From: an uncultured Ignavibacteriaceae bacterium | GTDB taxonomy: Bacteria; Bacteroidota; Ignavibacteria; Ignavibacteriales; Ignavibacteriaceae | Length of the DNA: 64,000 bases | Reading direction: 5' to 3' | Assembly (NCBI GenBank): GCA_963698525.1 | Contig: CAVORE010000008.1 | Location: 33,122 to 97,121, forward strand | Shown here: positions 8,880 through 41,404 of the stretch, in pieces | Numbering within the stretch: the stretch's first letter is position 1 | How the letters are laid out: each line of letters opens with the position of its first letter | The notes under the pieces: generated by a model | Databases searched by the model: none | The model's input: only the letters and a program-made list of their open reading frames with translations | What the model was told of the DNA's origin: nothing | Program-made: the position numbers and the translations under genes

Positions 8880-8916
8880 CGGCAGTACTCTTCTTCTAAA
8901 CCCGTACTACCTGGTA

Positions 8917-20856: not shown

Positions 20857-21007
20857 AGCTCAAAAATCCCTAATTATTTCAAAGTAGGTGAGCTTTTTCA
20901 CAGGTAATAGCTTGGGGTGAGTTTTCATTTTCTTATTTTTGGGTTAGAAATTATTCGCTTTCCCGCAAATCGGGAGTCTTTTCTCAAATGCAAATAAAGA
21001 GGGAATT

Positions 21008-23232: not shown

Positions 23233-23728
23233 AATATTGAACTTAACACCTAGCTGTCTCAAGATGGATCAAAATAAATTACGAGTTTCTTTCTATGAGA
23301 ACTAAAAGCTTTTTTTAATCATAAGAGAAACTTTTGTGATTGTAAATAATTATTTTTCCACAGTTGAATATCCCATTGCTTTTAGAGCACTATAAAGCCA
23401 TCTAGAGATATTTAATACCCGATCCTTCAAATTTTCCAATATATCCACATCCATTTTTTTGCAGAATATTAGTTTCTAAGATTATCATAAAAAGTGAATT
23501 GTCGGCATAAAAGTTGATTTTCAACAAACGATTTCAAGAGAGGATAGCTTTTAGGGAACCGGATTGTAAGTACAAAAATGACGAAATAGAGATCTGGTAA
23601 ATAATATATAATGCTCATTATTGAACTTATTTATTACATAATAATCTCGCTATATTCTGGATAGTTACAGAGTTTCTTATAATCCGTTAATATTGAGCCA
23701 GGATTTTTTTAATTAAAAGGGCAATCTA

Positions 23729-25261
23729 GTGTCTAAAAAATTTACTTGTTTTGTAGTTGGTGAAGATTCACTTCTTATTAAATGCTGTGAAACTCTCCTG
23801 GATAAGTCGCACGATATATTTGGAATAATCTCATCAAGTCAATCAATAAAAAAATGGGCATCAGAAAATAACATAAAAGTTTATGAGTTAGACGCAAACC
23901 TTATTAGTGTATTATCTTCAAAACCTTTCGATTACCTTTTCAGTATTACAAATTTGTCTATCCTAAAAGATGAAGTTATTAATTCTCCTCGTAAAGCGGC
24001 AATAAACTTTCACGACGGACCGTTACCAAAATATGCAGGAATCAACGCAACATCCTGGGCATTGATGAATCGGGAAAAGAAATATGCAATTACGTGGCAT
24101 GAAATAACCAGTGAAATTGATAAGGGCGATATTTTAAAGCAGGTTCATTTGGTTATTGATGATGGAGAAATTGCACTTTCACTGAATGCAAAATGTTTTG
24201 AAGCAGGAGCTTCTGCTTTTGAAGAATTAGTTGAGGAACTAGCTAATGGAACTGTCCAGAGAATTAAACAGGATTTTTCAAAAAGATCATATTTCGGCAA
24301 ATTTAAAAGACCTGATTCTGCTGCAATTATTGATTGGAACAGTGATGCTGAAAGTATTTTGTCATTTGTTCATGCACTAAATTTTGGCAGGTATAGAAAT
24401 CCTCTTGGACTGCCGAAAATAAAAATTGGTGAAAAGTATTTTCTTATTCCGGAACTTGAAATTACTAATCCAAAATCAAAAGAGGCACCTGGAACAATTA
24501 CGGCAGCCAATGAAAAATACTTTGAGGTTTCAACAAAGACTAATTCTGTAAGATTTAGTAAAGTTCTTTCAATTGATGGTTTAGCAATTTCATTGGTGAA
24601 CCTGATCGAGCAATTTTCATTAAAATCAGGAACAAGATTAAATCAGGTTGACGGCGGATCCTCTAAAAGCATAACGGAATTCAATTCAGTTATTGCGAAT
24701 AAAGAAAATTATTGGATTAGAGAGCTAACAAATCTTGAAGCGATTAATTTTAATTATACAAAGCGAAATTCGAAAAGTGATCATTTAGCTGATCCAGCCG
24801 AAGAATATTTAAAGATTTCTAAAAAAGCTTTTAGCACATTTAAGATTGATGAGAACCAACTTCCAACACTTATCCTTTCTCTTTTTTCAATCTTCATTGG
24901 TCGCCACAGCGGAAAGAATAATTTTACTCTTGGATATTCTAATTCAGAATTACTGGAGAATCAGAAAAAGTTCGGAAACCTATTTGCAGAGATTGTTCCC
25001 GCTAATATTTATTTTAATCCTGAAGAGAGCCTTAATGATGCTGTAATTAAGTTAATTGAGGGATTTAATAAAATTGATAAGAATAAAACATTCATAAAAG
25101 ATGTTTTCCCACGTCATCCGGAATTATTACACTTTGTAAATGAAGGCGGAGAACCTGTTTATCCAGTTGCTGCTGTGATCATTAAAGATCAATCTGATTT
25201 TAAGCCTCAGCCAAGCAACGTATTGACTTTTGTCATTTCCTCAGATTGTAGTACCGATTAA
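23729..25261 (+). CDS. NRPS starter fragment: formyltransferase (F) domain + C-terminal lobe of a condensation-like domain (frame-broken from the next ORF)
   Basis: GTG start. INFHDGPLPKYAGINA (Fmt Asn/His motif), HEITSEIDKGDIL (catalytic Asp region) and an Fmt C-terminal subdomain (IDWNSDAESILSFVHAL). From about residue 320, ENYWIRELTNLEAINFNYTKR... is typical of the second half of C domains. There is no HHxxxDG. Confidence 0.75.
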   Translation: MSKKFTCFVVGEDSLLIKCCETLLDKSHDIFGIISSSQSIKKWASENNIKVYELDANLISVLSSKPFDYLFSITNLSILKDEVINSPRKAAINFHDGPLPKYAGINATSWALMNREKKYAITWHEITSEIDKGDILKQVHLVIDDGEIALSLNAKCFEAGASAFEELVEELANGTVQRIKQDFSKRSYFGKFKRPDSAAIIDWNSDAESILSFVHALNFGRYRNPLGLPKIKIGEKYFLIPELEITNPKSKEAPGTITAANEKYFEVSTKTNSVRFSKVLSIDGLAISLVNLIEQFSLKSGTRLNQVDGGSSKSITEFNSVIANKENYWIRELTNLEAINFNYTKRNSKSDHLADPAEEYLKISKKAFSTFKIDENQLPTLILSLFSIFIGRHSGKNNFTLGYSNSELLENQKKFGNLFAEIVPANIYFNPEESLNDAVIKLIEGFNKIDKNKTFIKDVFPRHPELLHFVNEGGEPVYPVAAVIIKDQSDFKPQPSNVLTFVISSDCSTD

Positions 25262-28200
25262 GTTTGTTTACAACTCTGCTTCAATAAGTGTTGATGATAT
25301 GAAGTTGTTAAAAGAACAGTTTACAGCTTTTATTGAGGGAACCTCTGTTCTTAAAGAATCACCCATAACCGAAATTGCTATTATCTCTTCGGAAGAAAAA
25401 AGAAAATTATTAGAAGAATGGAATAAAACGAACACGACATATTCGATTGATAAATGCATTCATCAGCTTTTTGAAGAACAGGTTGTTAAAACTCCTTCGG
25501 CTATTGCTGTCTTCTGCAAAGGTGAATCACTTACTTATGATGAACTTAACAAAAAATCAAATCAGCTCGCAAAGAAATTGAAGAAATCAGGCGTCGGTGC
25601 AGAAACGCTCATTGGCATTAGTTTGCATAGATCAGTTGATATGATGATAGCTATTCTCGGAGTGTTAAAAGCCGGCGGAGCGTATGTCCCTCTTGATCCT
25701 GAATTCCCTAAAGACAGAATTTTATATATGGTTCAGGATTCAAAATGTTCCGTAATCATTACGGAACAAAAATTAAAGAAAGAATTTGACTCTGTTAAAG
25801 CAAAGCTCATTTCAATTGATAATGATTGGAAAGAAATTTCAAAAGAATCAGGTGACAATTCTAAAAGTAGTGTTACGTCAAATAATCTATCATATGTAAT
25901 TTATACATCAGGCTCAACCGGAAAGCCAAAAGGTGTAATGGTTCAACATAGGAATGTAGTTAACTTTTTTGCCGGAATGGATAAGCACATCAAATTCGAT
26001 CCTCCTGGTGTATGGCTTGCAGTTACCAGTTTATCCTTCGATATCTCGGTACTGGAATTACTATGGACGTTGTGCCGTGGATTCAAAGTCGTTATATATG
26101 CTGAAGAAGATTGGAAATCAGAACAACTAAAATCAACAATACTAAAGAATCAGCAGAGAATTGACTTCAGCTTGTTTTATTTTTCAAGTTACGCGAGTGA
26201 AAATCCGAATGAGAAATACCGGTTATTAGTTGAAGGAGCAAAATTCGCAGACCAAAACAGGTTTACTGCAGTCTGGACTCCTGAAAGACATTTTCATGAC
26301 TTTGGTGGATTGTATCCGAATCCAGCAGTAACAAGCGCTGCCCTGGCAACGATAACGAAACATTTGAGAATTATGAGCGGTAGTTGTGTATCCCCCTTGC
26401 ATCATCCTCTAAGAATTGCCGAGGACTGGTCAATAGTTGATAACCTATCAAATGGAAGAGTAGGAATTTCTTTTGCAGCAGGATGGCAACCTATAGATTT
26501 TACTTTGATGCCTCAAAATTACGAGAGGCGCAAGGATATAATGTTTGAGCAGATTGAAATTATTAAGAAATTATGGAGAGGTGAAGCCGTTGAGTTCGAT
26601 TCACCGATTGGTAAAAAGGTAGGAATAAAAACATTACCGAGGCCGATTCAGAAAGAACTTCCTGTATGGATAACAGCAGCTAATAATCCAGAAACATTTC
26701 AGATGGCAGGTGAAAAGGGATTTTATTTGTTAACTCACCTTCTCGGGCAATCAATCGAGGAGCTTGAAGATAAGATTGCAATTTATCGCAAAGCATGGAA
26801 ATCAAACGGACATCCTGGAAATGGTTACATTTCTCTTATGCTTCATACATTTGTGGGAGAAAATCTTGAAGAAGTAAAGGAAACGGTTCGTGAACCCATG
26901 AAACATTATCTTAACAGCGCTGTAAACCTGGTAAAGCTTGCATCGTGGTATTTTCCCACCTATAATAAACTTAACGATAGTTTTAATGAAGCTGCAGAAC
27001 ACCTTACTAAAGAGGATATGGACGCGATCCTAAATCATTCATTTGAAAGATACTTTGAAACCAGTGCCTTGCTTGGAACTCCTGAAACTTGCCTGGAAAC
27101 AGTAGAAAAACTAAAGAAAGTTGGCGTCGATGAAGCCGCATGCCTTATTGACTTTGGTGTTGAATCTGAAAAAGTGCTTTCGCATTTGCAGTATCTCAAT
27201 GCAGTTAAAACGCTGGCAAATTTAGGAGTCCGTGAACAAGCTGCCGTGGATGAAGATGAAAATTATTCCATTACTGAATTAATTAATCAACAGAAAGTTA
27301 CTCACTTACAATGTACTCCTTCGATGGCTAAAATTTTAATGCTTGAAGTTGAGTCTAAAAGAGCACTAAAGAATATTAAATGCTTAATGATTGGCGGAGA
27401 GGCTTTCCCGGTTAATCTGGCACAAGAATTAAAAGAAACCGTCAGCGGTAAAATATTGAATATGTATGGACCAACAGAAACTACAGTCTGGTCTTCAATT
27501 CATAAAATTGATGAACTAAACGATTCAATACCTATTGGCAAACCGATTGCTAATACTGAAATTTTTATATTAGATAATTACCATCAGTTAGTACCTATCG
27601 GAGTTCCGGGAGAGTTGTGTATAGGAGGAGATGGGGTTGTTAGGGGATATTTTGAAAGACCCGAACTGACAAAGGAAAAATTCATAACATTCTCATTAAA
27701 CGGCACACAAATCCAGAAACGGATTTACAAAACAGGTGATCTTGCCTGCTACAGAAAAGATGGAACAATAGAATTTCTTGGACGACTTGATCATCAGGTC
27801 AAAATTCGTGGCTACAGAATTGAATTAGGAGAGATTGAAACAGCACTCGGGAAACACTCACAAATTAGGGAAGCAGTTGTAGTTGTACGGGAAGATAAAC
27901 CGGGAGAGAAAAGATTAGTTGCTTACCTGGTCGGATCTTCTGGCGTAAATCCTTCTACAATAAATCTTAGGAATTTTCTGAAAGAATCGCTCCCGGAGTA
28001 TATGATCCCTTCACTTTTTTCTTTCGTGGAAGAATTTCCGCTAACTCCAAATGGTAAAGTAGATAGGAATGCCTTGCCTGAACCTGAATCTGAGAGACCG
28101 GCGCTGGACAAAGCATTTGAAACACCGCAAACCCCTACTGAAGTAACACTTGCTAATTTATGGAGTCAGGTTCTTGGTATTGAAGGAATTGGGCTTCACG

Positions 28201-28412
28201 ATAACTTCTTTGATTTGGGTGGTCATTCATTATCAGCGGTTCAGATAACTGTAAAAATTCATCAGTCATACAACATAGATTTATCTTTGCAAACATTCTT
28301 TCAGTCCTCTACTCTTAAAGAACTTGCAAATGCAATTGATGAAAAATTACTTGAGCAGGCTTCCGGTGAGCATTTAGAACAACTTTTACGTGAAGTTGAA
28401 AATTCAAAATAA
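25230..28412 (+). CDS. NRPS A-T didomain; A domain (Gly-like code) interrupted by a luciferase-like monooxygenase
   Basis: LSYVIYTSGSTGKPKGV (A3), SLSFDISVLELLW (A4), then a 355-aa LLM insert, then HLQCTPSMA (A5), NMYGPTETTVWSS, YKTGDL, GRLDHQVKIRGYRIELGEIE (A8), LPEYMIP (A9), PNGKVDR (A10) and FFDLGGHSLSAVQ (carrier Ser codon 28227-28229). Confidence 0.85.
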   Translation: MSFPQIVVPIKFVYNSASISVDDMKLLKEQFTAFIEGTSVLKESPITEIAIISSEEKRKLLEEWNKTNTTYSIDKCIHQLFEEQVVKTPSAIAVFCKGESLTYDELNKKSNQLAKKLKKSGVGAETLIGISLHRSVDMMIAILGVLKAGGAYVPLDPEFPKDRILYMVQDSKCSVIITEQKLKKEFDSVKAKLISIDNDWKEISKESGDNSKSSVTSNNLSYVIYTSGSTGKPKGVMVQHRNVVNFFAGMDKHIKFDPPGVWLAVTSLSFDISVLELLWTLCRGFKVVIYAEEDWKSEQLKSTILKNQQRIDFSLFYFSSYASENPNEKYRLLVEGAKFADQNRFTAVWTPERHFHDFGGLYPNPAVTSAALATITKHLRIMSGSCVSPLHHPLRIAEDWSIVDNLSNGRVGISFAAGWQPIDFTLMPQNYERRKDIMFEQIEIIKKLWRGEAVEFDSPIGKKVGIKTLPRPIQKELPVWITAANNPETFQMAGEKGFYLLTHLLGQSIEELEDKIAIYRKAWKSNGHPGNGYISLMLHTFVGENLEEVKETVREPMKHYLNSAVNLVKLASWYFPTYNKLNDSFNEAAEHLTKEDMDAILNHSFERYFETSALLGTPETCLETVEKLKKVGVDEAACLIDFGVESEKVLSHLQYLNAVKTLANLGVREQAAVDEDENYSITELINQQKVTHLQCTPSMAKILMLEVESKRALKNIKCLMIGGEAFPVNLAQELKETVSGKILNMYGPTETTVWSSIHKIDELNDSIPIGKPIANTEIFILDNYHQLVPIGVPGELCIGGDGVVRGYFERPELTKEKFITFSLNGTQIQKRIYKTGDLACYRKDGTIEFLGRLDHQVKIRGYRIELGEIETALGKHSQIREAVVVVREDKPGEKRLVAYLVGSSGVNPSTINLRNFLKESLPEYMIPSLFSFVEEFPLTPNGKVDRNALPEPESERPALDKAFETPQTPTEVTLANLWSQVLGIEGIGLHDNFFDLGGHSLSAVQITVKIHQSYNIDLSLQTFFQSSTLKELANAIDEKLLEQASGEHLEQLLREVENSK
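26160..27230 (+). other. Luciferase-like (FMN/F420-type) monooxygenase domain inserted between A4 and A5 (approximate bounds)
   Basis: IDFSLFYFSSYASENPNEKYRLLVEGAKFADQNRFTAVWTPERHFHDFGGLYPNPAVTSAALA...GRVGISFAAGWQP... This is a TIM-barrel LLM signature of the natural-product LLM type. Confidence 0.75.
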
Positions 28413-28463
28413 AAATATTATCTGAAAAGATAATGAAATCAATAACTAATTATTAGGTGTAAA

Positions 28464-29414
28464 ATGAGGGATGAATTAAAGAGTTTCACTTATCTGGAAG
28501 AAATATCTTCAACACTAAAAAACATTTCCTTTCCAACAAGATTTGCAGTAGAAGTAACCGCCGAGTGCAATCTTAAATGTGCCATGTGTCATCATCCGAA
28601 TATGGTAAGACCGAAAGGGAGAATGCCATTTGAACTCTGGAAAAAATGTGCTGACGAGATTGCAGAAATTTCTCCTTCTACACAGTGCTGGTTCTCTTTT
28701 TGCGGAGAACCTCTTCTTGAACCGGAACATTTGATAAAAATGATTAAGTACGGAAAGTCAGTCGGGCTTAAATCACTTAATATCAACACTAATGGAATGT
28801 TATTAACTCCCGAATGGGCCGAACCAATTATAGATTCGGGTGTGGACCTTGTTGTAATTGGCATTGATGGATTTTCTGCAGAAGTGTTTGAGAAAATAAG
28901 GATCGAAGCTAAAAGAGATGTTGTTTATTCTAATGTTGAGTATTTTCTTGAAGTGAAGAAAAAGCGCGGTTTCGGACCCGAGGTCCAGGTTCAGTTTATA
29001 GAGATGGAAGAAAACAAACATGAGCTTGACACATTTAAAAAATATTGGCTGCAGCGAAGTGCAACTATTAAAGCAAGAAGGATGTTAAGCTGGGGAGGAA
29101 AATTTGATACGCAGTTATGTGTACCTGAAGATAATCGTATTCCATGTCCATGGTCATGCACAATGATGCACGTATTCTGGGATGGAAGGGTGCCCCGTTG
29201 TCCCGGTGATACAGAAGGGGATGAAGGTGCAGGTAATGCATGGGATGAACCGTTATTTAAGCTTTGGGGAAAACTGAGTCCTTATCGGGATCTGCATTTG
29301 GAGCATCGGTTTGATGAACTTCCTGACCGTTGCCAAAATTGTACCGACTGGATGACAGGTTCTGCTGAAAGGATAAAACCGTCAGAGACTAGTGAACTAA
29401 ATGGTGGTATTTGA
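28464..29414 (+). CDS. Radical SAM enzyme with truncated SPASM/twitch-type domain
   Basis: EVTAECNLKCAMCHH is CxxxCxxC. The C-terminal region has CPWSCTMMHVFWDGRVPRC (GxxxxC) and CQNC. 316 aa, embedded between NRPS genes. Confidence 0.8.
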   Translation: MRDELKSFTYLEEISSTLKNISFPTRFAVEVTAECNLKCAMCHHPNMVRPKGRMPFELWKKCADEIAEISPSTQCWFSFCGEPLLEPEHLIKMIKYGKSVGLKSLNINTNGMLLTPEWAEPIIDSGVDLVVIGIDGFSAEVFEKIRIEAKRDVVYSNVEYFLEVKKKRGFGPEVQVQFIEMEENKHELDTFKKYWLQRSATIKARRMLSWGGKFDTQLCVPEDNRIPCPWSCTMMHVFWDGRVPRCPGDTEGDEGAGNAWDEPLFKLWGKLSPYRDLHLEHRFDELPDRCQNCTDWMTGSAERIKPSETSELNGGI

Positions 29415-29430
29415 GAAAAGGAGTAAAAAA

Positions 29431-30471
29431 ATGAAATCAATATTATATCTATGTGGTGCAGGTAATGCTGAAGGTGTTCGTCTTGCATTAAGAGTTAATG
29501 AGAAAGAACACCGTTGGGAAAAAATAGTAATTCTTGATGATGATATAAATAAGATTGGCAAGAATATACTTGGGGTGGAAATAGTTGGTCCATTTGATCA
29601 TTTAACTCAGGTTGATAAAACTAATGAACAAGTAGTTAACTTAGTTGCCAGAACAACCACTAAAAGATATAATGCTGCTGAAAAAATTAAAAAGTACGGA
29701 TTACCATTTATATCTTTGATTGACCCTAATGTTGATACCTGGGGTGTTGAATACAGTGGCGATGTAACTATTTATCAGAACGTTACTTTTTCTGCTGGTG
29801 CATTCATAGACGAAGGTTCAGTTGTTTTTACAGGTGCAGTTGTTGGTCACGGTTGTAAAGTTGGTAAATGTTGTGTTATAGCTCCGGGTGCCGTTCTCAA
29901 TGCTCGTGTCGAACTTGAAGATGGAGTTTACATGGGAACAAATGCATCAATTCTTCCTGATCTTAAAGTTGGTGCTTGGGCAACTATCGGAATTAATTCA
30001 GCTATCGTACAAAATGTACCCGAAGGTGCAACTGCAATGGGAGTTCCTGCAGAATTAGTTATGTTACCGAACAGTTCTCCGTTTCCTGGTTTACCGGTAC
30101 GAAAGGAAAATATAGATCAAAAAGTAATAATGCCAAAAGCTACTGCGAAGAGACCAAAGTTAAATACAATATTCAAAGAACCGAAGACTGAAATTGACAT
30201 AGCCATCACAGAAATATTCTCGCAAGTGCTTAAATTAGATAAAATTGGTATTGATGATAACTTTTTTGATATAGGGGGTCATTCACTCTCAGCAGTTCAG
30301 ATTGCATTTCAACTTAAGAAAAAATTCAATATAAATGTTCCTCTTCAAACATTTTTCGATTTTCCGACGATTGCCGGATTATCCAATAAGATTGAAACTG
30401 AATTAATCAGTAGTGCTGATGGCGCTGATCTTGAAAAATTATTGAATGAAATAGAGAATAAATCTCACTGA
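29431..30471 (+). CDS. NeuD/PglD-like left-handed beta-helix acyltransferase fused to a C-terminal carrier (T) domain
   Basis: The ATG at 29431 follows AAGGAG (29418-29423); the alternative ATG at 29401 overlaps the upstream gene. The N-terminal LCGAGNAEGV...ILDDD...G..I.G is the NeuD-type Rossmann-like lobe. Hexapeptide repeats run through GAFIDEGSVVFTGAVVGHGCKVGKCCVIAPGAVLNARVELEDGVYMGTNASI. The C-terminal FFDIGGHSLSAVQIAFQL is the phosphopantetheine site. Confidence 0.75.
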   Translation: MKSILYLCGAGNAEGVRLALRVNEKEHRWEKIVILDDDINKIGKNILGVEIVGPFDHLTQVDKTNEQVVNLVARTTTKRYNAAEKIKKYGLPFISLIDPNVDTWGVEYSGDVTIYQNVTFSAGAFIDEGSVVFTGAVVGHGCKVGKCCVIAPGAVLNARVELEDGVYMGTNASILPDLKVGAWATIGINSAIVQNVPEGATAMGVPAELVMLPNSSPFPGLPVRKENIDQKVIMPKATAKRPKLNTIFKEPKTEIDIAITEIFSQVLKLDKIGIDDNFFDIGGHSLSAVQIAFQLKKKFNINVPLQTFFDFPTIAGLSNKIETELISSADGADLEKLLNEIENKSH

Positions 30472-30580
30472 AATCGAACAGCATCGGTGATATTCACGTT
30501 GTTGGAGCATATCTAATCATTAAATTTAAATTATGTTTGAATTCAAGTATATTATTAAAACTCATAGAAATGAATAAAGA

Positions 30581-33500: not shown

Positions 33501-34912
33501 CCAATGACCAATCCGTAAGAGATGGTTCTCTTCTCTCTGAAGTTCAAAAGATGGAATTAAAACTTCAGCATCTTGAGATTAGACAGAACGATGATGATAA
33601 ACAGAAGATTGAACTGATAAAGCCCCCGACCAATAACCGGTTCAAAGAAAAATATCTTTCCAGACAGACTTACCGTACATTTCTTAACGGAAAAGAAAAA
33701 ATTTCATTTAAAAAGTTTAGTGAGTTTCTAAATTGTCTTGCTCAATTAAATTCCGACGAGCTTCCTTTTCCTAAATACAGATATCCCTCCGCAGGAAGCT
33801 TGTATCCCGTTCAAGTTTATCTTTATATAAAATCCGGGAAAATTGAAGGTGTTGATGGCGGGGCATATTACTATAATCCAAAAGATCACCGTTTGGTTTT
33901 GTTATCTTCTAACCCCAGGATATTGAAGAATATTCATACTGTAAACAATTACGAAACATTTGAAGATTCCGCTTTCTCAATCTTCCTTGTTGCACAACTG
34001 AAAGCTATTGCTCCTGTTTATGGCACAAAGACAATATCTAAAAGAACCAAGAAATCAGCATTTAAAACTTTGCTTTCCGGTCTTCACACAATGATAGTAG
34101 GCATGAAACAGCAGCAAAGTTCGGCGGATGTTTCAAGAGATTTCTGTGTTATTGAAGCCGGTTACATGGGTCAACTACTAATGACATCGGCTCAGGAAAA
34201 TCAGGTTGGTCTTTGCCCGGTTGGCGGAGTAGATTTTGATAAAATAAGAGAATACTTTGATTTGGAAGCAACACACTTATACATTCATGGATTTATGGGT
34301 GGCGCAATTTCTATTGGACAAACTAAATCTTTTTCATTAGTTGCAGATTTGCCATCTGCATCCGCACAGAAGAATACTAAGCAAGCATTTATTGAAGAAG
34401 TTAAAAATTATCTTCAGGATTCTATTCCTGATTACATGGTTCCTGCAAACTTTGTGATATTAGATGTGCTTCCGTTAACACCAAACGGTAAAGTTGATAG
34501 AAAAGCTCTTCCAATTCCAGAGGATGAAAATAGTTCGGTTTCGATCCAAATGCCTGAAGGAGAAATGAGTCCTTCTACTGAAAAAATTTCAAAGATTGTG
34601 CAAAGTATTTTGAAGATGGAAAGTATAAACCCTTTGGTTAATTTATTTAACGTGGGCGCTACTTCTATACAGATTATTATGATCACAAATCAACTAGAAA
34701 GTAAGCTTGGATTCAGACCGCGAATAGATGAGATTTATGCTGATCCAACTATCTCTGCCATTGCAAAAAAATACGATAAATTTGCGGGAATAGCATCGAA
34801 GAGTGGCAGCTCAAATGGAAAGAGCATCGAAGAGGATAAAACACTTGAATTACTGAAGAAAGTGAAATCACTTTCACAGGAAGATGTAAAATCAAAATTA
34901 AAGCAGATTTAA
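30581..34912 (+). CDS. NRPS module Cy-A(Cys-like)-[Ox]-T (thiazoline/thiazole-forming)
   Basis: FPLNNLQQAYLIGR and DLLNFDAGS (DxxxxDxxS, codons from 31121) identify a heterocyclisation domain. The A domain has LAYVLYTSGSTGNPKGV, HDLSVYDLFG, WNSVPA, LSGDWIP, GGPTETTIW and GRKDFQVKIRGLRVELGEIE. The Ox insert follows, then IPDYMVP...PNGKVDR. The carrier site is FNVGATSIQ (Ser codon 34664-34666). Confidence 0.85.
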   Translation: MDIKERLKNLTPEQRSVLLKKLSEDRAGQESPKSMFPEVIMNTEERYETFPLNNLQQAYLIGRSNAFEMGNIPSAAYVELECKNLDLDRFKAAWMKLINRHEILRSIVNEDYTQQILKESPEFKIQINDLRSEDGELLETELKSIKKRMLHTVKSAGTWPLFEVQVSKIKDGIDHVHFKLDLLNFDAGSIAILFNELKEFYLDANKNLPGLELSYRDYLIAEKKFEETEFFTRSKEYWMNRLATIPPAPQLPLRISSKEVEKPYFIRRIKTINSDNWFKLKAKAAREGLTPTVLLLTAYAEILGLWSTSLRFSINIPLFNRFPLHPDVNKIIGDFSTVEILEVDRTEKESFIDRAKKIHKQLIADLDSRYFDGVAVFRELAKINEDDFRKGVPVIFTSLIDHSFTENISQIGRIVDSVNQTAHVWLDLHVDEVDGNLVVKFDAVEELFEESVLDDMLTTYIDLLSKLATNEQTWENNNLALFPANQYEKRLKVNDTNKPVPQELLHSLFSKKAKEQPDHLAVISSEKRLSFKELDELSNRIGNHLRKLGAKPDKLIAIIMDKGWEQVPAVYGILKAGSAYLPIDPDFPGDRINHLLIDGQVEIILTQSWIKDRLAISGNINCFSIDNGDFDEADSKEPAPIQKPDNLAYVLYTSGSTGNPKGVMIEHRSVVNRMLDVNERYGVTETDKAIALTALQHDLSVYDLFGMLIAGGTIVIPENDKRLDPAHWAKIMNGNKVTFWNSVPAYLEMLIDYLENQKDKSIVPNSFRMTVLSGDWIPVSIPDRLRTLIPKIQIIGSGGPTETTIWDIYNFIGEVDPNWKSIPYGKPLTNASYYVMKDNLEECPEFVIGELCIGGAGLARGFWKDAERTNDKFILHPSTGERLYKSGDLGYFRPDGMIQIAGRKDFQVKIRGLRVELGEIESALEKHPDVKDAVVTTIGESQTNKRLVGYIVTSKEFNDAVVQTASKPKQETLSNDQSVRDGSLLSEVQKMELKLQHLEIRQNDDDKQKIELIKPPTNNRFKEKYLSRQTYRTFLNGKEKISFKKFSEFLNCLAQLNSDELPFPKYRYPSAGSLYPVQVYLYIKSGKIEGVDGGAYYYNPKDHRLVLLSSNPRILKNIHTVNNYETFEDSAFSIFLVAQLKAIAPVYGTKTISKRTKKSAFKTLLSGLHTMIVGMKQQQSSADVSRDFCVIEAGYMGQLLMTSAQENQVGLCPVGGVDFDKIREYFDLEATHLYIHGFMGGAISIGQTKSFSLVADLPSASAQKNTKQAFIEEVKNYLQDSIPDYMVPANFVILDVLPLTPNGKVDRKALPIPEDENSSVSIQMPEGEMSPSTEKISKIVQSILKMESINPLVNLFNVGATSIQIIMITNQLESKLGFRPRIDEIYADPTISAIAKKYDKFAGIASKSGSSNGKSIEEDKTLELLKKVKSLSQEDVKSKLKQI
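33640..34330 (+). other. FMN-dependent oxidase (nitroreductase/SagB-like Ox) domain inserted between A8 and A9 (approximate bounds)
   Basis: LSRQTYRTF...PKYRYPSAGSLYPVQVYLYI...GAYYYNPKDHRLVLL...EAGYMGQLLM...GLCPVGG matches the Ox domains of thiazole-forming NRPS modules. Confidence 0.7.
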
Positions 34913-34924
34913 GTAACTGATTAG

Positions 34925-37900
34925 ATGAACTTATCTTATGATGAAATAGCCAGGCTTACATCTGAACAACGTGCTCTATTAGAAAAGCTGATGAAAGAAG
35001 AGGGGCTGGATGTTTCAAAGTTACCAATACCACTCCGGCAAAAAGAATCAAAAATCCCTCTAACTCCAACTCAAAAAAGATTCTGGTTTCTTGAAAAAAT
35101 TCATCCCGGGACCTCAACATATAATATTCCAATTTTCTTCAAGATAAAAGGCAAGATTTCCATTGAGATTCTTGAAAAAAGTTTCAAGCAGCTTGTCCAA
35201 AGACATAGTTTATTAAGAACTAAATTTATTGAAATTGATAGTGAACCATACCAGGAAATTTTACAGCATGATAATTTCAGAATAAATGTGAGCGAGCTTA
35301 ATAAGAACGAACTCTCCGACAAAGATCCCGATGTTCAGAAAGTTCTGACTAACGAATTACAAAAACCTTTTGACTTTATTAATGATTTTTTGTTGAGAAT
35401 TCTTCTTATAAAATGCAATAAGAACGAATTTATCTTATCAATCGTAACGCATCATCTTTATGCTGATGGTTGGTCCATTCGTATTTTATTAAAAGAATTA
35501 GATGAGATTTACAACTCATTCAATGAAAAGAAAAATGCCTCCCTGAAAGAGCTCACAATTGATTTTCCGGATTATGCCTGCTGGCTCGATGATCATCTGG
35601 ATGACAGCAGCTTAGAGGAACAATTAAAATTCTGGAAAGAAAAACTTAACGGCGCATCATTAATCTTAGATTTACCAACGGATTTTAACCGTCCTGCTGT
35701 AGAAAAATATAATGGTGCTGCATATCATTTTGAAATTGACACTACCAGGGCTGGGATGATTTCTGCTTTGACAAAGAAGTTGAAAGTGACAAAGTTTGTA
35801 TTAATAATGAGCTTTTTCCAGGGGTTACTACATAAATATTCTAATCAGAATGATATAATTGTGGCAACTGCCATTTCCAACAGGAGTAGATCGGAAGTTG
35901 AAGATATCATAGGTAACTTTTCAAACAATTTGTTAATACGTACAGATTTTTCCGAAGATCCTAATTTAGAAAAAATATCTGCTCACGTTCATCAATCTTT
36001 CCTTGAAGCACTGCAAAACAAGGATCTTCCGTTTGAAAAGCTCGTTGAACAAATTAATGTTGGCCGTGACTTAAGCCGGAATGCACTTTTTCAGTTTATG
36101 ATACTTCTACACCAGGGAAGGCACGATGAGTTAATAAACTTTTCCGGAACAGAAATCTGTGAACTCGAGCCGGTTATCACCACTTCAAAATTCGATATGT
36201 TGCTTGAGATATATGATGGGAAGGATTCTTTAAGAGGTATACTTGAATACAATTCTGATTTGTTCAAATCAACAACCATTGAGCTAATGGTAAAACATTT
36301 TTTCCGTTTGATTGAAATTTGGTCTGAGCATACAAATCTTCCATTTTCAGAGATTGATATTCTAACTGATGATGAAAAAAATCTTTTAGCTGAGATTAAT
36401 AATACTGACGCTATTTATCCCAAAAAATTACGACTTCATGATCTTTTTGAAATGCAGGCCGAGAAAACCCCGGATAAAATAGCTGTTGAGTTTGAAGGAA
36501 AATTTTTAACTTATTCTGATCTTAATAGCAAAGCAAATAAGGTAGCTAATTATTTACGAAAGCTTGGAATTGAAGAAAGCCAATTTGTAGGCATTTGTGT
36601 CGATCGCTCAATCGAGATGCTGATTGGAATTATAGGAATTCTAAAAGCCGGATGCGCTTATATTCCTTTAGATTCGGGTTTTCCATCGAACAGGTTAAAC
36701 TATATGCTTGAAGATGCCAAAGTAAAGATACTGCTTACTTCAAATAAACTAAAAGATATCTTCCATAAAGTCGATTTAAAATGTGTGTTACTAGATGATG
36801 ATTGGAAACTTCTTGAAAAAGAAAATGAAGAGAATTTAATTTCAAAAATATCTTCAGAAGATCTTGCATATGTAATTTACACTTCAGGTTCAACGGGAAA
36901 TCCTAAAGGCGTGCAGATAAAGCATAAATCCGTTGTTAACTTTTTACTTTCTATGCAGATGGAACCCGGAATAACTTCTGAAGATGTTCTTCTTTCCGTC
37001 ACAACAATTTCCTTCGATATTTCTGTGCTGGAAATGTTTTTACCCATTATTTCCGGTGCCAAGCTGGTTATTGCTGGAAAAGCTGTTACATGGGATGGTA
37101 AACAATTACTAAAATTACTGCATGATACAAATGCTAACGTAATGCAGGCAACACCATCAACCTGGCGGCTGATGATTGAATCAGGCTGGAGATCGACCCT
37201 TAACTTAAAAATGCTGTGCGGTGGTGAGGCACTTTCAATTGAACTGGCCAACCAAATGCTTGATAGAGGTGGTTCACTCTGGAATATGTATGGTCCAACC
37301 GAAACAACAATCTGGTCTTCTGTTAAAAAAATAGAGCCCAGAAGTGAGTCCGTTTTAATCGGGCCACCAATTGCGAATACGCAATTTTATATTCTTGATA
37401 ATGATTTGAAACCTGTTCCATTCGGTATACCCGGTGAACTTTTTATTGGTGGTGACGGACTTGCAAAAGGATATCTGTACAGGCCTGAATTAACTAATGA
37501 AAAATTTATATCAAATCCTTTCACAAACTCGGATTCGAAATTATACAGAACAGGGGATTTGACCAGATTCAGGAATAATGGCGACATTGAATTTCTTGGA
37601 CGTTTAGATTATCAGGTAAAGATAAGAGGTTTCAGAATTGAGCTTGGTGAAATTGAAAATGTGCTTTCAGAACATCCTGAGATAAAAAATGTAGCTGTGA
37701 ATGCCTGGTCTGATGTAAGTGGAGATAAAAAATTAGTTGCTTATTACACTTCTATAAATGGAACTTCCATTGAAGTAACCAACTTAAGATCTTATTTAAC
37801 AAATAAGCTGCCCGATTATATGGTCCCATCTTTCTTTGTGAAGATGGGTGAATTACCAGTTACTCCAAACAAGAAAATAGATCGAAAAGCTTTACCGGCA

Positions 37901-40900
37901 CCTGATATTTCGGAAGTCTCGGCAAAGGAAGAATACGCTCCACCACGTGATGATCTTGATAAAGAACTTGTTTCCATTTGGCAGAAGATACTTGGAATAA
38001 AAGTAATAGGAATTAATGATAATTTTTTTGATCTGGGTGGTCATTCACTTCTGGTGGTCCAGTTATTTGCTCAAATAGAGAAGAAGATCGGTGCTAATCT
38101 GCCGCTTGCAATTTTATTTCAAGCGCCAACAATTGCTCAATTAGCTGACAGAATAAAAAATAAAAATTGGGAGAATAAACCGAGAACTAATATCCCAATA
38201 GAAAAGATTGATAGACCAAAATATCTTCCGCTTTCGTTTCCACAACAAAGACTTTGGTTCCTGGAGAAATATGAGGCAAATACTCCAGTGTATAATATTC
38301 CGATGGCATATAGAATTTATGGAGAATTTGATATCGATGCATTCGGAAAAGCCATGAATGAAATAATCAGGCGGCACGAAATATTAAGAACAAGTTTTAA
38401 AATAAATAAAGGTACACCATATCAAGATATTTTGAGTAAGTTGAAATTGAGTATACCTTTAATTGATCTTTCCGGGCTTCCATCACAGGATAGAGAAGCT
38501 GTCTTGTCAAAGCAATTACATTCTAAAGCCGGAAATACTTTTAATATAAGCGAAGGACCTCTTCTAAGCTGCGATGTTTTTAAGCTAGGACAACTTGAAT
38601 ATGTAGTTCTATTTGTGATACATCATTTAATTTTCGATGGTTGGTCCACAAACGTATTATTAAAAGAACTGAATCAACAATATTTATTTCATCATCAAGG
38701 CGGCACAGAATCTTCAAAAGAGCTACCGATTCAATATGCTGATTTTTCATTATGGCAGCATCAGTGGATAAACGAAGATTTTCTCAAACAGCAATTATAT
38801 TATTGGAAAAATCAATTAAAAGGAGAATTACCATCTCTTGAACTTCCCACCGATTTTCCCAGACCAGCGGTTCAGAAATACAACGGTAAAATAGAGTTAT
38901 TTAAAATTGATTTAGAATTGGCAGAAATGTTAACAGCACTAGGTCGCAAGGAAAATTCAACTCTATTTATGGTTTTATTAACTGCTTTGTACGTCTTGGT
39001 CTATCGTTATTCGGGGCAGAAAGATATTTGCGTCGGTACTGTTGTAGCCAATAGAATTAGACCGGAACTTGATGATTTGATGGGAGTATTTGTAAATAAT
39101 TTGGTTATGCGAGCCAATTTTTCAAGTAACCAAAGTTTTAGGGAATTACTCAGAACAGTTCGTCAAATTTGTTTAGAAGCATATGAGAATCAGGATTTAC
39201 CGTTTGAAAAATTGGTTGAAGAATTACAACCCAAACGAGACATCAGTCGCACACCGCTTTTTCAATTACTGTTTTCCTATCAGGAAATTAACGAAAATAA
39301 ATCACTACCAAATGGTATAAAACTAGAACAAGTTCCTGTTCACTCAGGTGTTGCGCGAACTGATTTAAGTCTTTGGATTGATAAGAATGATTACGAGATA
39401 AATGGTGCGTTGGAATATTGCACCCACTTGTTTCAGGCCGAAACGATTAATCGCTTTGTCGGGAATTACAAATACCTGCTAAAGAAAATTTGTGAAAACG
39501 CTGATCAAAAAGTTTCTGAGATAACAATTTTAAACGGAGAGGAAAAAAATAAAGTTCTCTATGAATGGAATAATACGAAAGCATTCTCTCCTACAAACAC
39601 AACACTAATTCAACTTTTTGAAGAACAAGTAAAATCCTCAGGTAATAAAGTAGTTGTGGAATCAGAGGGTGAAAAGCTGAGTTATATTCAGCTTAATGAG
39701 CGGGTTAACCAAACTGCAAATTATTTATTAAGCATTGGAGTCAAAGAAGAAGATTATGTTGGAATCTGCTTAGATAGATCGGTTGAGATGCTTATTTCAA
39801 TGCTGGCTGTTTTGAAATGTGGTGCAGCATATTTACCGATGGATCCAATATTTCCGCCTGAAAGATTAGATTATATGTTAGATGATGCTAAGGTAAAGGT
39901 GATAATAACCAATAGTAAGTTAATCAACATTTTCAGTGGATTTAAAGGTAAGAGTGTCTTTATCGATGAGGAGTTTGAAAAAATAAAACGTTGTGACAAT
40001 ATAAATCCTGATATAAAAATCAATCCGGATAATCTTGCCTATGTAATATACACATCAGGTTCAACAGGAAATCCAAAAGGCGTGCAGATAAAACATAGTT
40101 CGGTTGTAAACTTTTTGCTTGCTATGAAGACAAAGCCCGGAATTAATCCTGAAGATGTACTTGTTTCGGTTACGACAATATCATTTGATATTTCTGTACT
40201 TGAACTGTTTCTTCCAATTATTACAGGGGCAAAGCTGATAATTGCCAGTAAGGCGATTACTTTAGATGGTAAACTTTTGCTGAAGTTGCTTGAAGAAAAA
40301 AATGCAACAATAATGCAGGCCACACCATCGACCTGGAAGATGATGATTGAATCAGGCTGGAAAAGAACACCGGGCTTAAAAATCCTTTGTGGAGGGGAAG
40401 CACTGCCTCTGGATCTTGCTAAGCAGATGTTAGCCAGAGGTGAAAGTTTGTGGAATATGTATGGTCCCACAGAAACGACAGTATGGTCTGCAGTTAGGAA
40501 AATTTCAGCAGATGATGAAGCGGTTTTTATCGGTTCACCAATAGACAACACACAATTCTATATACTGGATGAAGAATTTAACCCAGTACCGATCGGAGTG
40601 CCCGGCGAGCTATTTATAGGAGGAGAAGGGCTTGCGAAAGGATATCTAAACCGCCCTGAATTAACTAATGATAAATTTATTAGCAATCCTTTTGACAGAT
40701 CAGGTTTAAAGCTTTACAGGACAGGCGATCTTACCAGATTTAGATCAAACGGAGATATTGAATTTCTTGGACGGTTAGATCTTCAGGTAAAAATACGGGG
40801 GTTCAGGATTGAACTTGGTGAAATTGAAAATGTGCTTTCAGAACATCCGCAGATAAAAGATGTAGCAGTTAATTCTTGGGCTGACGCAAGCGGAGATAAA

Positions 40901-41356
40901 AAATTAGTTGCTTATTACATTTCACCGGATGGAGAATCAATTAATGTTTCCGAGTTTAGAACATTTTTAACTAAAAAGTTGCCGGAATATATGATCCCTT
41001 CTTTCTACATAAGACTGGAAAAATTTCCACTAACCCCTAATGCCAAAATTGACAGGAAAGCATTACCTGCACCTGACATTTCGGAGGTATCAAGCGAGAA
41101 GCCATATGTTCCACCACGTGATGAACTTGAAATGAAGCTATCTGAAATATGGCGTTCAGTTCTAAAACTTAAAACTGTTGGGATTAACGATAATTTTTTT
41201 GAGCTTGGTGGGCACTCACTACTGGTTGTTCAGCTATTTAGCCAAGTTGAAGAGCTATTTAAGGTAGAACTGTCTATAGCGTTGATTTTTGAATGTCCTA
41301 CAATAAAAGAGCTTGCGTTAAAAATTAGGGAAACCATTGAGATTAAAATCTCATAA
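34925..41356 (+). CDS. Bimodular NRPS C-A-T-C-A-T, both A domains Gly-like, ending in a bare T domain
   Basis: HHLYADGWS (35450-35476) and HHLIFDGWS (38621-38647). There are two copies of AYVIYTSGSTGNPKGVQIKH, TTISFDISVLE, MQATPSTW, LCGGEAL, NMYGPTETT(I/V)WS and GRLD.QVKIRGFRIELGEIE. Carrier sites are FFDLGGHSLLVVQ (Ser 38045-38047) and FFELGGHSLLVVQ (Ser 41216-41218). The stop comes 46 codons after the last carrier Ser. Confidence 0.9.
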   Translation: MNLSYDEIARLTSEQRALLEKLMKEEGLDVSKLPIPLRQKESKIPLTPTQKRFWFLEKIHPGTSTYNIPIFFKIKGKISIEILEKSFKQLVQRHSLLRTKFIEIDSEPYQEILQHDNFRINVSELNKNELSDKDPDVQKVLTNELQKPFDFINDFLLRILLIKCNKNEFILSIVTHHLYADGWSIRILLKELDEIYNSFNEKKNASLKELTIDFPDYACWLDDHLDDSSLEEQLKFWKEKLNGASLILDLPTDFNRPAVEKYNGAAYHFEIDTTRAGMISALTKKLKVTKFVLIMSFFQGLLHKYSNQNDIIVATAISNRSRSEVEDIIGNFSNNLLIRTDFSEDPNLEKISAHVHQSFLEALQNKDLPFEKLVEQINVGRDLSRNALFQFMILLHQGRHDELINFSGTEICELEPVITTSKFDMLLEIYDGKDSLRGILEYNSDLFKSTTIELMVKHFFRLIEIWSEHTNLPFSEIDILTDDEKNLLAEINNTDAIYPKKLRLHDLFEMQAEKTPDKIAVEFEGKFLTYSDLNSKANKVANYLRKLGIEESQFVGICVDRSIEMLIGIIGILKAGCAYIPLDSGFPSNRLNYMLEDAKVKILLTSNKLKDIFHKVDLKCVLLDDDWKLLEKENEENLISKISSEDLAYVIYTSGSTGNPKGVQIKHKSVVNFLLSMQMEPGITSEDVLLSVTTISFDISVLEMFLPIISGAKLVIAGKAVTWDGKQLLKLLHDTNANVMQATPSTWRLMIESGWRSTLNLKMLCGGEALSIELANQMLDRGGSLWNMYGPTETTIWSSVKKIEPRSESVLIGPPIANTQFYILDNDLKPVPFGIPGELFIGGDGLAKGYLYRPELTNEKFISNPFTNSDSKLYRTGDLTRFRNNGDIEFLGRLDYQVKIRGFRIELGEIENVLSEHPEIKNVAVNAWSDVSGDKKLVAYYTSINGTSIEVTNLRSYLTNKLPDYMVPSFFVKMGELPVTPNKKIDRKALPAPDISEVSAKEEYAPPRDDLDKELVSIWQKILGIKVIGINDNFFDLGGHSLLVVQLFAQIEKKIGANLPLAILFQAPTIAQLADRIKNKNWENKPRTNIPIEKIDRPKYLPLSFPQQRLWFLEKYEANTPVYNIPMAYRIYGEFDIDAFGKAMNEIIRRHEILRTSFKINKGTPYQDILSKLKLSIPLIDLSGLPSQDREAVLSKQLHSKAGNTFNISEGPLLSCDVFKLGQLEYVVLFVIHHLIFDGWSTNVLLKELNQQYLFHHQGGTESSKELPIQYADFSLWQHQWINEDFLKQQLYYWKNQLKGELPSLELPTDFPRPAVQKYNGKIELFKIDLELAEMLTALGRKENSTLFMVLLTALYVLVYRYSGQKDICVGTVVANRIRPELDDLMGVFVNNLVMRANFSSNQSFRELLRTVRQICLEAYENQDLPFEKLVEELQPKRDISRTPLFQLLFSYQEINENKSLPNGIKLEQVPVHSGVARTDLSLWIDKNDYEINGALEYCTHLFQAETINRFVGNYKYLLKKICENADQKVSEITILNGEEKNKVLYEWNNTKAFSPTNTTLIQLFEEQVKSSGNKVVVESEGEKLSYIQLNERVNQTANYLLSIGVKEEDYVGICLDRSVEMLISMLAVLKCGAAYLPMDPIFPPERLDYMLDDAKVKVIITNSKLINIFSGFKGKSVFIDEEFEKIKRCDNINPDIKINPDNLAYVIYTSGSTGNPKGVQIKHSSVVNFLLAMKTKPGINPEDVLVSVTTISFDISVLELFLPIITGAKLIIASKAITLDGKLLLKLLEEKNATIMQATPSTWKMMIESGWKRTPGLKILCGGEALPLDLAKQMLARGESLWNMYGPTETTVWSAVRKISADDEAVFIGSPIDNTQFYILDEEFNPVPIGVPGELFIGGEGLAKGYLNRPELTNDKFISNPFDRSGLKLYRTGDLTRFRSNGDIEFLGRLDLQVKIRGFRIELGEIENVLSEHPQIKDVAVNSWADASGDKKLVAYYISPDGESINVSEFRTFLTKKLPEYMIPSFYIRLEKFPLTPNAKIDRKALPAPDISEVSSEKPYVPPRDELEMKLSEIWRSVLKLKTVGINDNFFELGGHSLLVVQLFSQVEELFKVELSIALIFECPTIKELALKIRETIEIKIS

Positions 41357-41404
41357 CCAATACTGCGTAATACCAATACTGCGTAATACCAATACTGCGT
41401 AATT
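41357..41404. repeat. Three tandem copies of a 16-bp unit (ccaatactgcgtaata) starting at the first base after the NRPS stop codon
   Basis: Copies at 41357-41372, 41373-41388 and 41389-41404. Copies 1 and 2 are identical; copy 3 differs only at its last base. Confidence 0.95.

Follow-up and report, generated by a model that had tools for sequence, protein, structure and literature searches.

Organization of the locus

The stretch of DNA considered here, a window of 64,000 nucleotides (64 kb) from an uncultured Ignavibacteriaceae bacterium (contig CAVORE010000008.1), carries on its forward strand an operon for non-ribosomal peptide synthesis between nucleotides 23729 and 41356. Judged from its sequence, the locus is a real and uncharacterized peptide-assembly gene cluster in which mostly glycine modules are arranged around a two-gene cassette, namely a radical S-adenosylmethionine (SAM) enzyme (g3) and a left-handed β-helix (LbH) acyltransferase fused to a peptidyl carrier protein (g4; PCP or T, the fusion being called Hex-PCP or Hex-T below). 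The modules of the non-ribosomal peptide synthetase (NRPS) are of individually known types, and their combination is without description in the literature searched and in NCBIfam, where no equivalog matched the cluster proteins. Full-text literature on the domain combination or on NRPSs of the Ignavibacteria likewise gave nothing relevant, as the original prediction had expected in knowing of no characterized assembly line of this kind; the conserved cassette and its near-exclusive pairing with glycine modules are likewise without description in that literature. That prediction had, however, called the locus an orphan and had taken the radical SAM and acyltransferase-carrier genes as simply lying between the modules, and neither view survives, as the pair recurs in 72 other loci and forms the conserved core of a family rather than an accessory to it.

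The features of the operon are listed below, where F denotes formyltransferase, C condensation, C* a partial C domain, Cy heterocyclization, A adenylation, LLM luciferase-like monooxygenase, Ox oxidase and TE thioesterase domains.

23233..23728, + strand: AT-rich intergenic region of 496 nt, presumed promoter (GC 0.27-0.31)
23729..25261, + strand: g1, N-terminal part of the F-C*-A(LLM)-T gene, with the formyltransferase (aa 40-284) and the first part of C* (Pfam Formyl_trans_N, Formyl_trans_C)
25256..25256, + strand: frameshift site, an extra G in 'ACCGATTAAG' that splits F-C*-A(LLM)-T into g1 and g2 (homology frames of locus L003; contig L085)
25230..28412, + strand: g2, end of C*, Gly-type A domain with LLM insert, PCP and acidic C-terminal tail (Pfam, TIGR04020, motifs)
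28464..29414, + strand: g3, radical SAM enzyme with a Twitch-like (half-SPASM) auxiliary-cluster domain, first cassette gene (Radical_SAM, Cys motifs, fold search)
29431..30471, + strand: g4, PerB/PglD/NeuD-type LbH acyltransferase, PCP and acidic tail, second cassette gene (TIGR03570, PP-binding)
30581..34912, + strand: g5, Cy-A(Cys-like)-[Ox before A10]-PCP thiazole module with the N-terminal docking-type sequence MDIKERLKNLTPEQR (Pfam, motifs, PDB)
34925..41356, + strand: g6, C-A(Gly)-T-C-A(Gly)-T, 2143 aa (HHLYADG, HHLIFDG, Gly A motifs, Ser1041, Ser2098)

The open reading frames (ORFs; that of g4 opening at 29401) are co-directional and as tightly packed as had been predicted, with consecutive gaps or overlaps of -32, 51, -14 (+16 from the conserved Met11 start of g4), 109 and 12 nt; g4 probably starts at this Met11, nt 29431. 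The predicted count of six genes is reduced to five because F and A(LLM)-T form one protein in all orthologues and in the near-identical contig L085. The GC content of the operon genes (0.34-0.40 versus 0.27-0.31) sets them apart from the upstream spacer, whose AT-rich character is thereby confirmed and which contains only minus-strand ORFs of at most 49 aa each.

Profile searches with Pfam and NCBIfam upheld every domain call of the locus, including the F, Cy, LLM and Ox assignments whose overturning had been named beforehand as grounds for refutation. The domain set comprises Formyl_trans_N/C; AMP-binding split by Bac_luciferase; Radical_SAM; Hexapep with PP-binding, which bears out the hexapeptide-acyltransferase-carrier fusion in g4; Condensation-AMP-binding-Nitroreductase-PP-binding; and two C-A-T units. 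Four A domains (AMP-binding with AMP-binding_C) were recovered and the A4, A5 and A10 motifs located in three of them, the A10 expression finding no match in the second A domain of g6. The motifs and specificity codes previously read by eye were reproduced by motif search, namely FDISVLE, Q(A/C)TPS, GGEA and NMYGPTETT(I/V)W of the Gly type and HDLSVYD, WNSVPA, LSGDWIP and GGPTETTIW of the Cys-like type, giving the Stachelhaus strings DILQMGMVWK, DILQLGMIWK and DILQLGMVWK (Gly-like) and DLYNVSSIWK (Cys-like). So were the two canonical C domains, the Cy domain with DLLNFDAGS and the five carrier serines (g2 S1000, g4 S295, g5 S1362, g6 S1041 and g6 S2098), four of the PP-binding domains reading GGHS and one GATS, while profiles and motif positions together confirmed that two A domains hold different flavoenzyme inserts (LLM and Ox). 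The parts of the locus thus add up to four modules of A-T type (Gly, Cys-like, Gly, Gly) and three condensing domains that should be functional (Cy, C, C), together with the F domain as formyl cap, the two inserts for flavin-dependent tailoring and a fifth, surplus PCP that belongs to Hex.

The initiation gene is to be read as a single F-C*-A(LLM)-T gene split by a +1 frameshift. Homology to the fused orthologue of L003, one of the related loci described below, lies in frame 2 up to ~25245-25260 and in frame 3 beyond, and F, the C-domain remnant, A(LLM) and T make up one ORF of ~1560 aa in the orthologues from L001, L003, L012, L014 and L071. Contig L085 (ENA ERZ25039603 contig_73613), which covers window positions 23639-40474 at 99.5% identity, is without the G at 25256 and reads ...VISSDCRTIKFVYNS... 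in frame at the same length as the orthologues; F and the first A-PCP form a continuous polypeptide only with this G removed, as in L085 and the orthologues. L085 differs from the window by 22 indel positions, and seems to be a noisy long-read assembly since these break most of its genes, yet at 25256 it is the window that has the frame-breaking base. As this near-identical contig reads through, an assembly error at 25256 is at least as likely as a true mutation.

The best PDB match of the F domain is the formyltransferase domain of ArnA (E 8e-17), with which the predicted Asn/His/Asp set aligns, and its sequence lies nearest to ArnA, Fmt and the sugar N-formyltransferases; LgrA was not among its PDB matches at E<=1e-6. 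With the G at 25256 removed, the fusion of an N-terminal formyltransferase with conserved Asn/His/Asp to the first A-PCP would be shared with LgrA (F-A-PCP) of the linear gramicidin pathway, but the window gene differs from LgrA-type loaders in the ~270-aa half C domain placed between F and A. This C* is the C-terminal half of a C domain and is without the half that bears HHxxxDG, because only positions ~190-455 of the Pfam Condensation profile are matched in its L001 orthologue; a PDB sequence search with C* returned no matches. F-A(Gly)-PCP loaders occur in oxazolomycin- and conglobatin-type pathways, and glycine is the formylated starter in oxazole-forming loaders, as is proposed for the window.

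The A4 (aa 271) and A5 (aa 747) motifs of g2 are separated by an FMN monooxygenase of luciferase-like type (nt 26166-27209, aa 313-660), which scores 504 bits against TIGR04020 (cutoff 244) and matches PuwE (6ket; E 4e-117) in a PDB sequence search. The surrounding A domain bears the Gly-like code DILQMGMVWK and is followed by a PCP with its Ser1000 at nt 28227-28229. Flavin monooxygenases of this kind in glycine modules α-hydroxylate carrier-bound glycine, the hydroxyglycine being kept in solanimycin B (SolF) and fragmenting to an amide in myxothiazol and melithiazol (PMC10204066). With MtaG, MelG and SolF, g2 shares a Gly-coded A domain and a TIGR04020-type FMN monooxygenase between A4 and A5; whereas MtaG and MelG are terminal C-A(MOx)-T-TE modules (MOx, monooxygenase) that give an amide, g2 is a first module, fused to F and the half-C remnant, and has no TE.

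The thiazole module g5 displays DLLNFDAGS at aa 181, a Nitroreductase domain (PF00881, aa 1027-1232; E 2.6e-12), A10 at aa 1303 and the carrier Ser1362, and its code agrees with the canonical DLYNLSLIWK at 8/10 positions. Its best PDB matches with full Cy-A coverage are BmdB 7ly4, 6lta and PchE 7emy, and the Cy domain also matches those resolved from EpoB and HMWP2. A DxxxxDxxS Cy domain and a nitroreductase-type Ox before A10 are shared with EpoB (epothilone), MtaD (myxothiazol) and BmdB/BmdC (bacillamide); g5 differs in the two positions by which its Cys-like code departs from the canonical string and in its upstream donor, which would be formyl-glycyl or cassette-derived instead of acetyl or polyketide.

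The last protein, g6, ends ~45 aa past its final carrier Ser with no TE, reductase (R) or terminal C domain, and is not orthologous to the C-T-TE protein of L003 (26% identity in C). The predicted local absence of a release domain, MbtH, phosphopantetheinyl transferase (PPTase) and exporter is upheld and can be widened, as TE, PPTase and MbtH were found nowhere in the 64-kb window (tblastn at E<=1, regular expressions, and Pfam on ORFs of at least 120 aa); in-cis release by TE, R or terminal C, missing from the window, is present in the relatives L001, L002, L003 and L008. No intrinsic terminator-like site was found after g6, which is followed by a convergent M24 aminopeptidase gene (41572-42963).

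The radical SAM and acyltransferase-carrier cassette

The first cassette gene was predicted to encode a radical SAM/SPASM enzyme, of which the radical SAM part holds (CX3CX2C formed by C35/C39/C42) and the full SPASM part does not. Only four cysteines are invariant in the C-terminal domain, arranged as C228-x12-G-x4-C246 and C290-x2-C293, so that the first half of the SPASM pattern is kept and the seven-Cys motif for two auxiliary clusters is missing; the Pfam SPASM score (21.2 bits) falls just below the threshold of 21.5, no NCBIfam model reaches its cutoff, and g3 is to be classed as Twitch-like. Its 804 homologues (64-91% identical among the aligned top matches) bear only generic names. The AlphaFold2 (AF2) model (pLDDT 82) gave MoaA, BlsE, BtrN and DesII, and also SuiB, SkfB and anSME, as top Foldseek matches at TM 0.55-0.62. 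The nearest folds, those of BtrN, MoaA, BlsE, anSME and SkfB, share CX3CX2C and CX12GX4C...CX2C with g3 but are only 15-18% identical to it, and g3 differs further in having no RiPP recognition element (RRE) or precursor peptide and in being partnered by a carrier-protein fusion. A role as maturase of a RiPP (a peptide made by the ribosome and modified after its translation) was rejected on these grounds together with the half SPASM motif, g3 being a 316-aa protein without N-terminal extension and with no precursor ORF or conserved small ORF nearby. Anti-phage defence was likewise rejected, the PADLOC match to pVip reaching only 42 bits through the radical SAM core alone and Hex-PCP giving none. 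On a 2.8-kb ENA contig (P0234), an apparent A-domain end and a PCP-like segment (GGEAH for GGHSL) are fused to the N-terminus of the radical SAM enzyme, which may be genuine or may be an artefact of sequencing.

The second cassette gene combines an LbH acyltransferase (nt 29431-30096) with a PCP (nt 30166-30405; Ser295 at 30283-30285). It scores 133.2 bits against TIGR03570 (NeuD/PglB/VioB), below the cutoff of 160.8, while covering profile positions 11-201 of 202, and its 690 homologues also carry only generic names. Its best structurally resolved relatives are PerB (4ea7; E 4e-17), PglD and VioB, with which it shares an N-terminal Rossmann-like domain, the left-handed β-helix and the catalytic His; its invariant His150 occupies the alignment position that is Asn in the PerB variant 4eaa and Ala in 4eab. 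It differs from these enzymes in being fused to an NRPS-type PCP (sometimes PCP-TE), with a GGHSL motif and a remnant of an A-to-T linker ('RPKLNTIFKEP') readable in its sequence, and in being always paired with the radical SAM gene. LbH transferases that depend on acyl-ACP are exemplified by LpxA and LpxD, and in Elp3 a radical SAM domain and an acetyltransferase domain act on the α-carbon of acetyl-CoA. Elp3 provides a logical analogy only, that of a radical SAM enzyme obligatorily coupled to an acyltransferase holding a pantetheine thioester; there is no homology (GNAT as opposed to LbH), and where the substrate of Elp3 is tRNA, that of the cassette would be a carrier-bound intermediate.

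When one genome per species was scanned, 77 loci were retrieved, of which five (L075-L079) are ordinary sugar acetyltransferases, leaving 72 for the family. The radical SAM gene lies directly upstream of Hex(-T) in ~65 of these by tblastn domain mapping, at 57-83% identity for the radical SAM enzyme and 45-78% for Hex, the closest loci belonging to Ignavibacteriaceae metagenome-assembled genomes (MAGs; Hex-T 64-71% identical). The locus is not an orphan, since this pair is conserved in ~70 uncultured bacterial species. At least 8 phyla are represented (Ignavibacteriota, Bacteroidota, Fibrobacterota, Gemmatimonadota, Planctomycetota, Acidobacteriota, Proteobacteria, Actinomycetota and others), the proteobacterial loci including those of Geobacter sp. 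AOG1 and Hydrogenophaga pseudoflava. NRPS, polyketide synthase (PKS) or adenylation genes stand beside the cassette in ~20 loci, and some cassettes are fused as Hex-T-TE. Representative architectures are as follows.

L003, Ignavibacteriaceae: F-C*-A(LLM)-T / Sfp-type PPTase / rSAM (radical SAM) / Hex-T / Cy-A(Ox)-T / C-T-TE, the closest architecture
L001, Ignavibacteria: F-C*-A(LLM)-T / C-A(LLM)-T / rSAM / Hex-T / C-A-T-TE
L005 (Ignavibacteriaceae), L007 (Ignavibacterium) and L008 (Bacteroidetes): PKS downstream of the cassette
L087, Gemmatimonadota: C-A(LLM)-T / PPTase / rSAM / Hex-T / C-A-T / Cy-A-T-Ox / C-T, then Wzz
L086, Alphaproteobacteria: C-A-T / rSAM / Hex-T only
L080, Geobacter sp. 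AOG1: A / T / rSAM / Hex / F / Hex-T-TE

The link to glycine is apparent from the A domains of NRPS type that lie no more than 10 kb from the cassette. Of these, 24 of 30 bear the Gly code DILQxGM(I/V)WK; the remainder are three Cys-type domains of Cy modules and three stand-alone A domains of Geobacter/Geomonas. Gly-coded A domains adjoin the cassette in Ignavibacteriota, Fibrobacterota, Bacteroidota, Alphaproteobacteria, Gemmatimonadota and one deltaproteobacterial MAG. In every NRPS-linked locus the pair is preceded by a Gly module and followed by a C, Cy or ketosynthase (KS) domain, and in every locus the PCPs outnumber the A domains by one, the extra carrier always being that of Hex-PCP. 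Close Ignavibacteriaceae relatives also carry a PPTase and a terminal TE. No third conserved partner emerged when 3811 ORFs were clustered all-against-all, no Pfam family being present in more than 4 of 111 co-directional neighbour ORFs; Era GTPase, Rrf2 and similar candidates were set aside as clade-specific synteny, and apparent rSAM-Hex fusions in high-GC loci as ORF-calling artefacts in which the two matches lie in different frames.

Two variants of the cassette deserve description. The Geobacter locus (BLIZ01000001.1:1088842-1110590, positions 5271-11749) has a non-Gly stand-alone A domain, a 92-aa carrier, a 33-aa ORF, the radical SAM gene, a PCP-less Hex, a stand-alone formyltransferase and a Hex-PCP-TE. 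In L029, L044, L045, L046, L053 and L054 (Acidobacteriota, Latescibacterota, Planctomycetota), a PCP-less Hex precedes a conserved protein of ~100-113 aa and then a Glyoxalase_4/VOC protein; the ~100-113-aa protein has no Pfam match and is possibly a divergent carrier.

The C-terminal tails of Hex-PCP and of the PCP of the upstream Gly module, compared across the window (28300-28412, 30360-30471, 30581-30660, 34830-34912 and 34925-35010) and L001, L002, L005 and L007, agree in type with each other inside any one locus and vary with the downstream module. Acidic tails of the type 'LExLLxExE' precede C or Cy proteins that start MDIKERLKNL(T/S)PEQR..., their N-terminal docking pattern being 'L(T/S)PEQRxxLLxKL', and basic tails, 'FRQRF' ('SKR..FRQRF') or 'RRxxRR', precede KS. 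Most stand-alone pairs have Arg-rich tails, which hints at unlinked megasynthase partners.

Surroundings of the operon

Upstream, the 2-oxoacid:ferredoxin oxidoreductase genes (21008-23232) were considered as part of the cluster and rejected; they encode an IorA/IorB indolepyruvate oxidoreductase, are syntenic in L005 and L039, and are treated as a housekeeping neighbour because the 496-nt gap divides them from the operon. The order Wzy_C/TPR gene, IorA/IorB and NRPS (window 19039-23232) is common to L005 (2-3955) and L039 (3-3700), both Ignavibacteriaceae MAGs, and as the NRPS/PKS modules differ between these loci, the shared order points to an island whose biosynthetic content varies while its place in the chromosome stays constant.

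The flanking glycan locus contains four further radical SAM genes (7833-8879, 9597-10859, 14285-15697 and 16494-17966), an unusual feature of a polysaccharide cluster; one is SPASM-type, one is BchE/PhpK-like, with no B12 domain detected, and the other two are of the B12-binding kind, and they adjoin three SAM methyltransferases and family 4 glycosyltransferases (GT4). None of the four is a paralogue of g3; the SPASM-type gene at 7833-8879, considered as one, was rejected because it is 24% identical to g3 in the core only. On the other side, two outer-membrane proteins of the OmpA family (43221-44582 and 47597-49342), paralogues of each other and both with thrombospondin type 3 repeats, enclose minus-strand genes for an acetyltransferase, a GFO/IDH/MocA oxidoreductase and a DegT aminotransferase, a set typical of 3-acetamido sugar synthesis. 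The flanks also hold a protein with a type IX secretion system (T9SS) tail, which, like an OmpA protein with type 3 repeats, fits the assignment to Ignavibacteriota that the closest cassette relatives make probable. A complete DUF4301 protein (E 1.8e-193), which no NCBIfam model matches, is encoded at 1554-3131. A stretch of 3.4 kb (55493-58964) without an ORF longer than 96 aa, tRNA, Rfam match or repeats could represent frameshifted genes or a non-coding region; tRNA and Rfam scans found no RNA genes in the window.

Proposed product and competing explanations

Taken as a whole, the locus is best explained as a five-gene NRPS operon with an on-line cassette, a reading that we favour at somewhat better than even confidence. 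The best guess for the peptide backbone is the colinear series formyl/oxidized-Gly - thiazole - Gly - Gly already put forward in the original prediction, the most likely product being a small N-formyl-(hydroxy)Gly-thiazole-Gly-Gly peptide, for which the naive free acid is calculated as C10H12N4O5S with [M+H]+ 301.060 (317.055 with the hydroxyl). In this scheme F-C*-A(Gly, LLM)-T would activate glycine, N-formylate it and probably α-hydroxylate it on the carrier, the hydroxyglycine being either kept or fragmented to formamide and a glyoxylyl-S-PCP. The Cy-A(Cys, Ox)-T module would then add cysteine and convert it to thiazole, and C-A(Gly)-T-C-A(Gly)-T would add two glycines. Release is not encoded at the locus; the relatives use a terminal TE.

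The cassette is thought to act on-line because of its position between a Gly module and C, Cy or KS domains, its NRPS-type PCP with linker remnant, the TE fusions and the co-variation of tails. It probably acts on carrier-bound glycyl units: the Gly A domain would load its own PCP and, in trans, that of Hex-PCP, so that the substrate would be a glycyl or N-acyl-glycyl thioester on the cassette's own carrier. The Twitch radical SAM enzyme may abstract a hydrogen atom at the glycine α-carbon, leading to oxidation or substitution, the PerB-like domain may perform N- or O-acyl transfer on the tethered unit, and Hex-PCP would feed the downstream Cy, C or KS domain.

Several observations weigh against an on-line cassette acting on glycine. 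The nearest relatives of Hex and F act on NDP-amino sugars and not on aminoacyl thioesters, and the nearest folds of g3, which resemble it weakly, act on nucleotides and sugars. The stand-alone A domain of Geobacter and Geomonas is not Gly-coded, and because in ~50 loci the pair has neither an A domain nor a megasynthase closer than 10 kb, the link to glycine and NRPSs is not universal and could reflect only the clades nearest the window. In L001 three PCPs have an acidic tail and one protein has the matching N-terminal docking sequence, a mismatch by which the tail argument is suggestive only. Lastly, the window is without TE and PPTase and carries a frameshift, and for these reasons its copy may make no product.

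The foremost alternative, although an unlikely one, is that the cassette belongs to a glycoconjugate route without a free small-molecule product, in which the PerB/PglD-like domain, with the PCP-bound acyl group taking the place of acyl-CoA, would move a carrier-bound peptide or glycyl unit to the amino group of an NDP-amino sugar or to a lipid-linked glycan and the radical SAM enzyme would tailor the same sugar. Such a hand-off comes into consideration because the locus lies within a polysaccharide gene region, and it would need no TE at the window locus. Polysaccharide genes stand on both sides of the operon (GT4s, Wzy_C, methyltransferases, DegT aminotransferase, GFO/IDH/MocA oxidoreductase, hexapeptide acetyltransferase, Bac_transf and UDP-GlcNAc 2-epimerase), and glycan genes lie within 10 kb in at least 7 of the 11 NRPS/PKS-linked relatives examined: DUF354 in L001 and L003; RmlD, a dTDP-sugar isomerase, PS_pyruv_trans and CapK in L002; Wzz/BY-kinase in L087; Poly_export and UDP-Glc dehydrogenase in L084; and a Wzy-like gene in L005 and L039. 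Stand-alone pairs, on the other hand, show no enrichment of glycan genes, and the amino-sugar operon that flanks the window locus has an acetyltransferase of its own. Hex is nearest to PerB, PglD and VioB with the catalytic His kept, F is nearest to ArnA and the sugar N-formyltransferases, the Foldseek neighbours of g3 include BlsE, BtrN and DesII, and acyl-ACP-dependent LbH transferases such as LpxA and LpxD set a precedent for the proposed transfer, but F is covalently fused to the Gly module and its substrate is for that reason almost certainly glycyl-S-PCP. The gemmatimonadotal L087 likewise ends in C-T without TE; against this, most close relatives (L001, L002, L003, L008) have a terminal TE which, with the Hex-T-TE fusions, indicates hydrolytic release.

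It is improbable that the window holds a decaying copy whose initiation gene is truly frameshifted, whose PPTase and TE are lost and from which no product arises. The frameshift at 25256 does fall inside the folded C* remnant, the closest relative, L003, has both a PPTase and a TE, and the non-orthology of g6 and the C-T-TE protein of L003 suggests recent rearrangement, at a variable site common to L005 and L039. The remaining ORFs, including that of 2143 aa, are nevertheless intact with all catalytic motifs kept, the near-identical contig is in frame at 25256, and genomes often carry their PPTase and type II thioesterase genes at other places. More improbable still is an independent neighbour, that is, a pair unrelated to the NRPS (serving cofactor, lipid or nucleotide-sugar modification, or maturation of Hex) that tends to insert beside megasynthases. 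The ~50 loci with the pair alone have heterogeneous neighbours, its very high conservation across phyla is typical of a self-contained, horizontally moving unit, and an acidobacterial/planctomycete sub-clade pairs it with the small protein and the VOC/glyoxalase protein. The preferred on-line reading accounts better for the NRPS-type PCP (GGHSL, A-to-T linker remnant), for NRPS-linked pairs always lying between a Gly module and C, Cy or KS with an adjoining A code that is nearly always Gly, for tail types that co-vary with the downstream module, and for the TE fusions and the apparent NRPS-T-to-rSAM fusion of P0234.

A bolder proposal, tenable although doubtful, is that the cassette is a portable assembly-line unit, either for radical functionalization of the α-carbon of carrier-bound glycine or for off-loading NRPS products onto amino sugars. 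If true, the former would parallel the MOx domain without needing oxygen, placing side chains on an oligoglycine scaffold, and the latter would be an NRPS directly decorating a surface polysaccharide. Minimal systems for testing such functions are offered by the C-A(Gly)-T / rSAM / Hex-T locus of an alphaproteobacterial MAG and by the locus of the cultured Geobacter sp. AOG1. NRPS clusters are common in uncultured phyla, whereas recurrent, highly conserved and uncharacterized enzyme pairs inside them are rarer and directly amenable to study. The locus marks an unstudied biosynthetic family and is no one-off oddity, and its cassette could bring to light new radical reactions of thioesters bound to carriers, a new means by which assembly lines begin or end, or a link between NRPSs and the biosynthesis of glycans.

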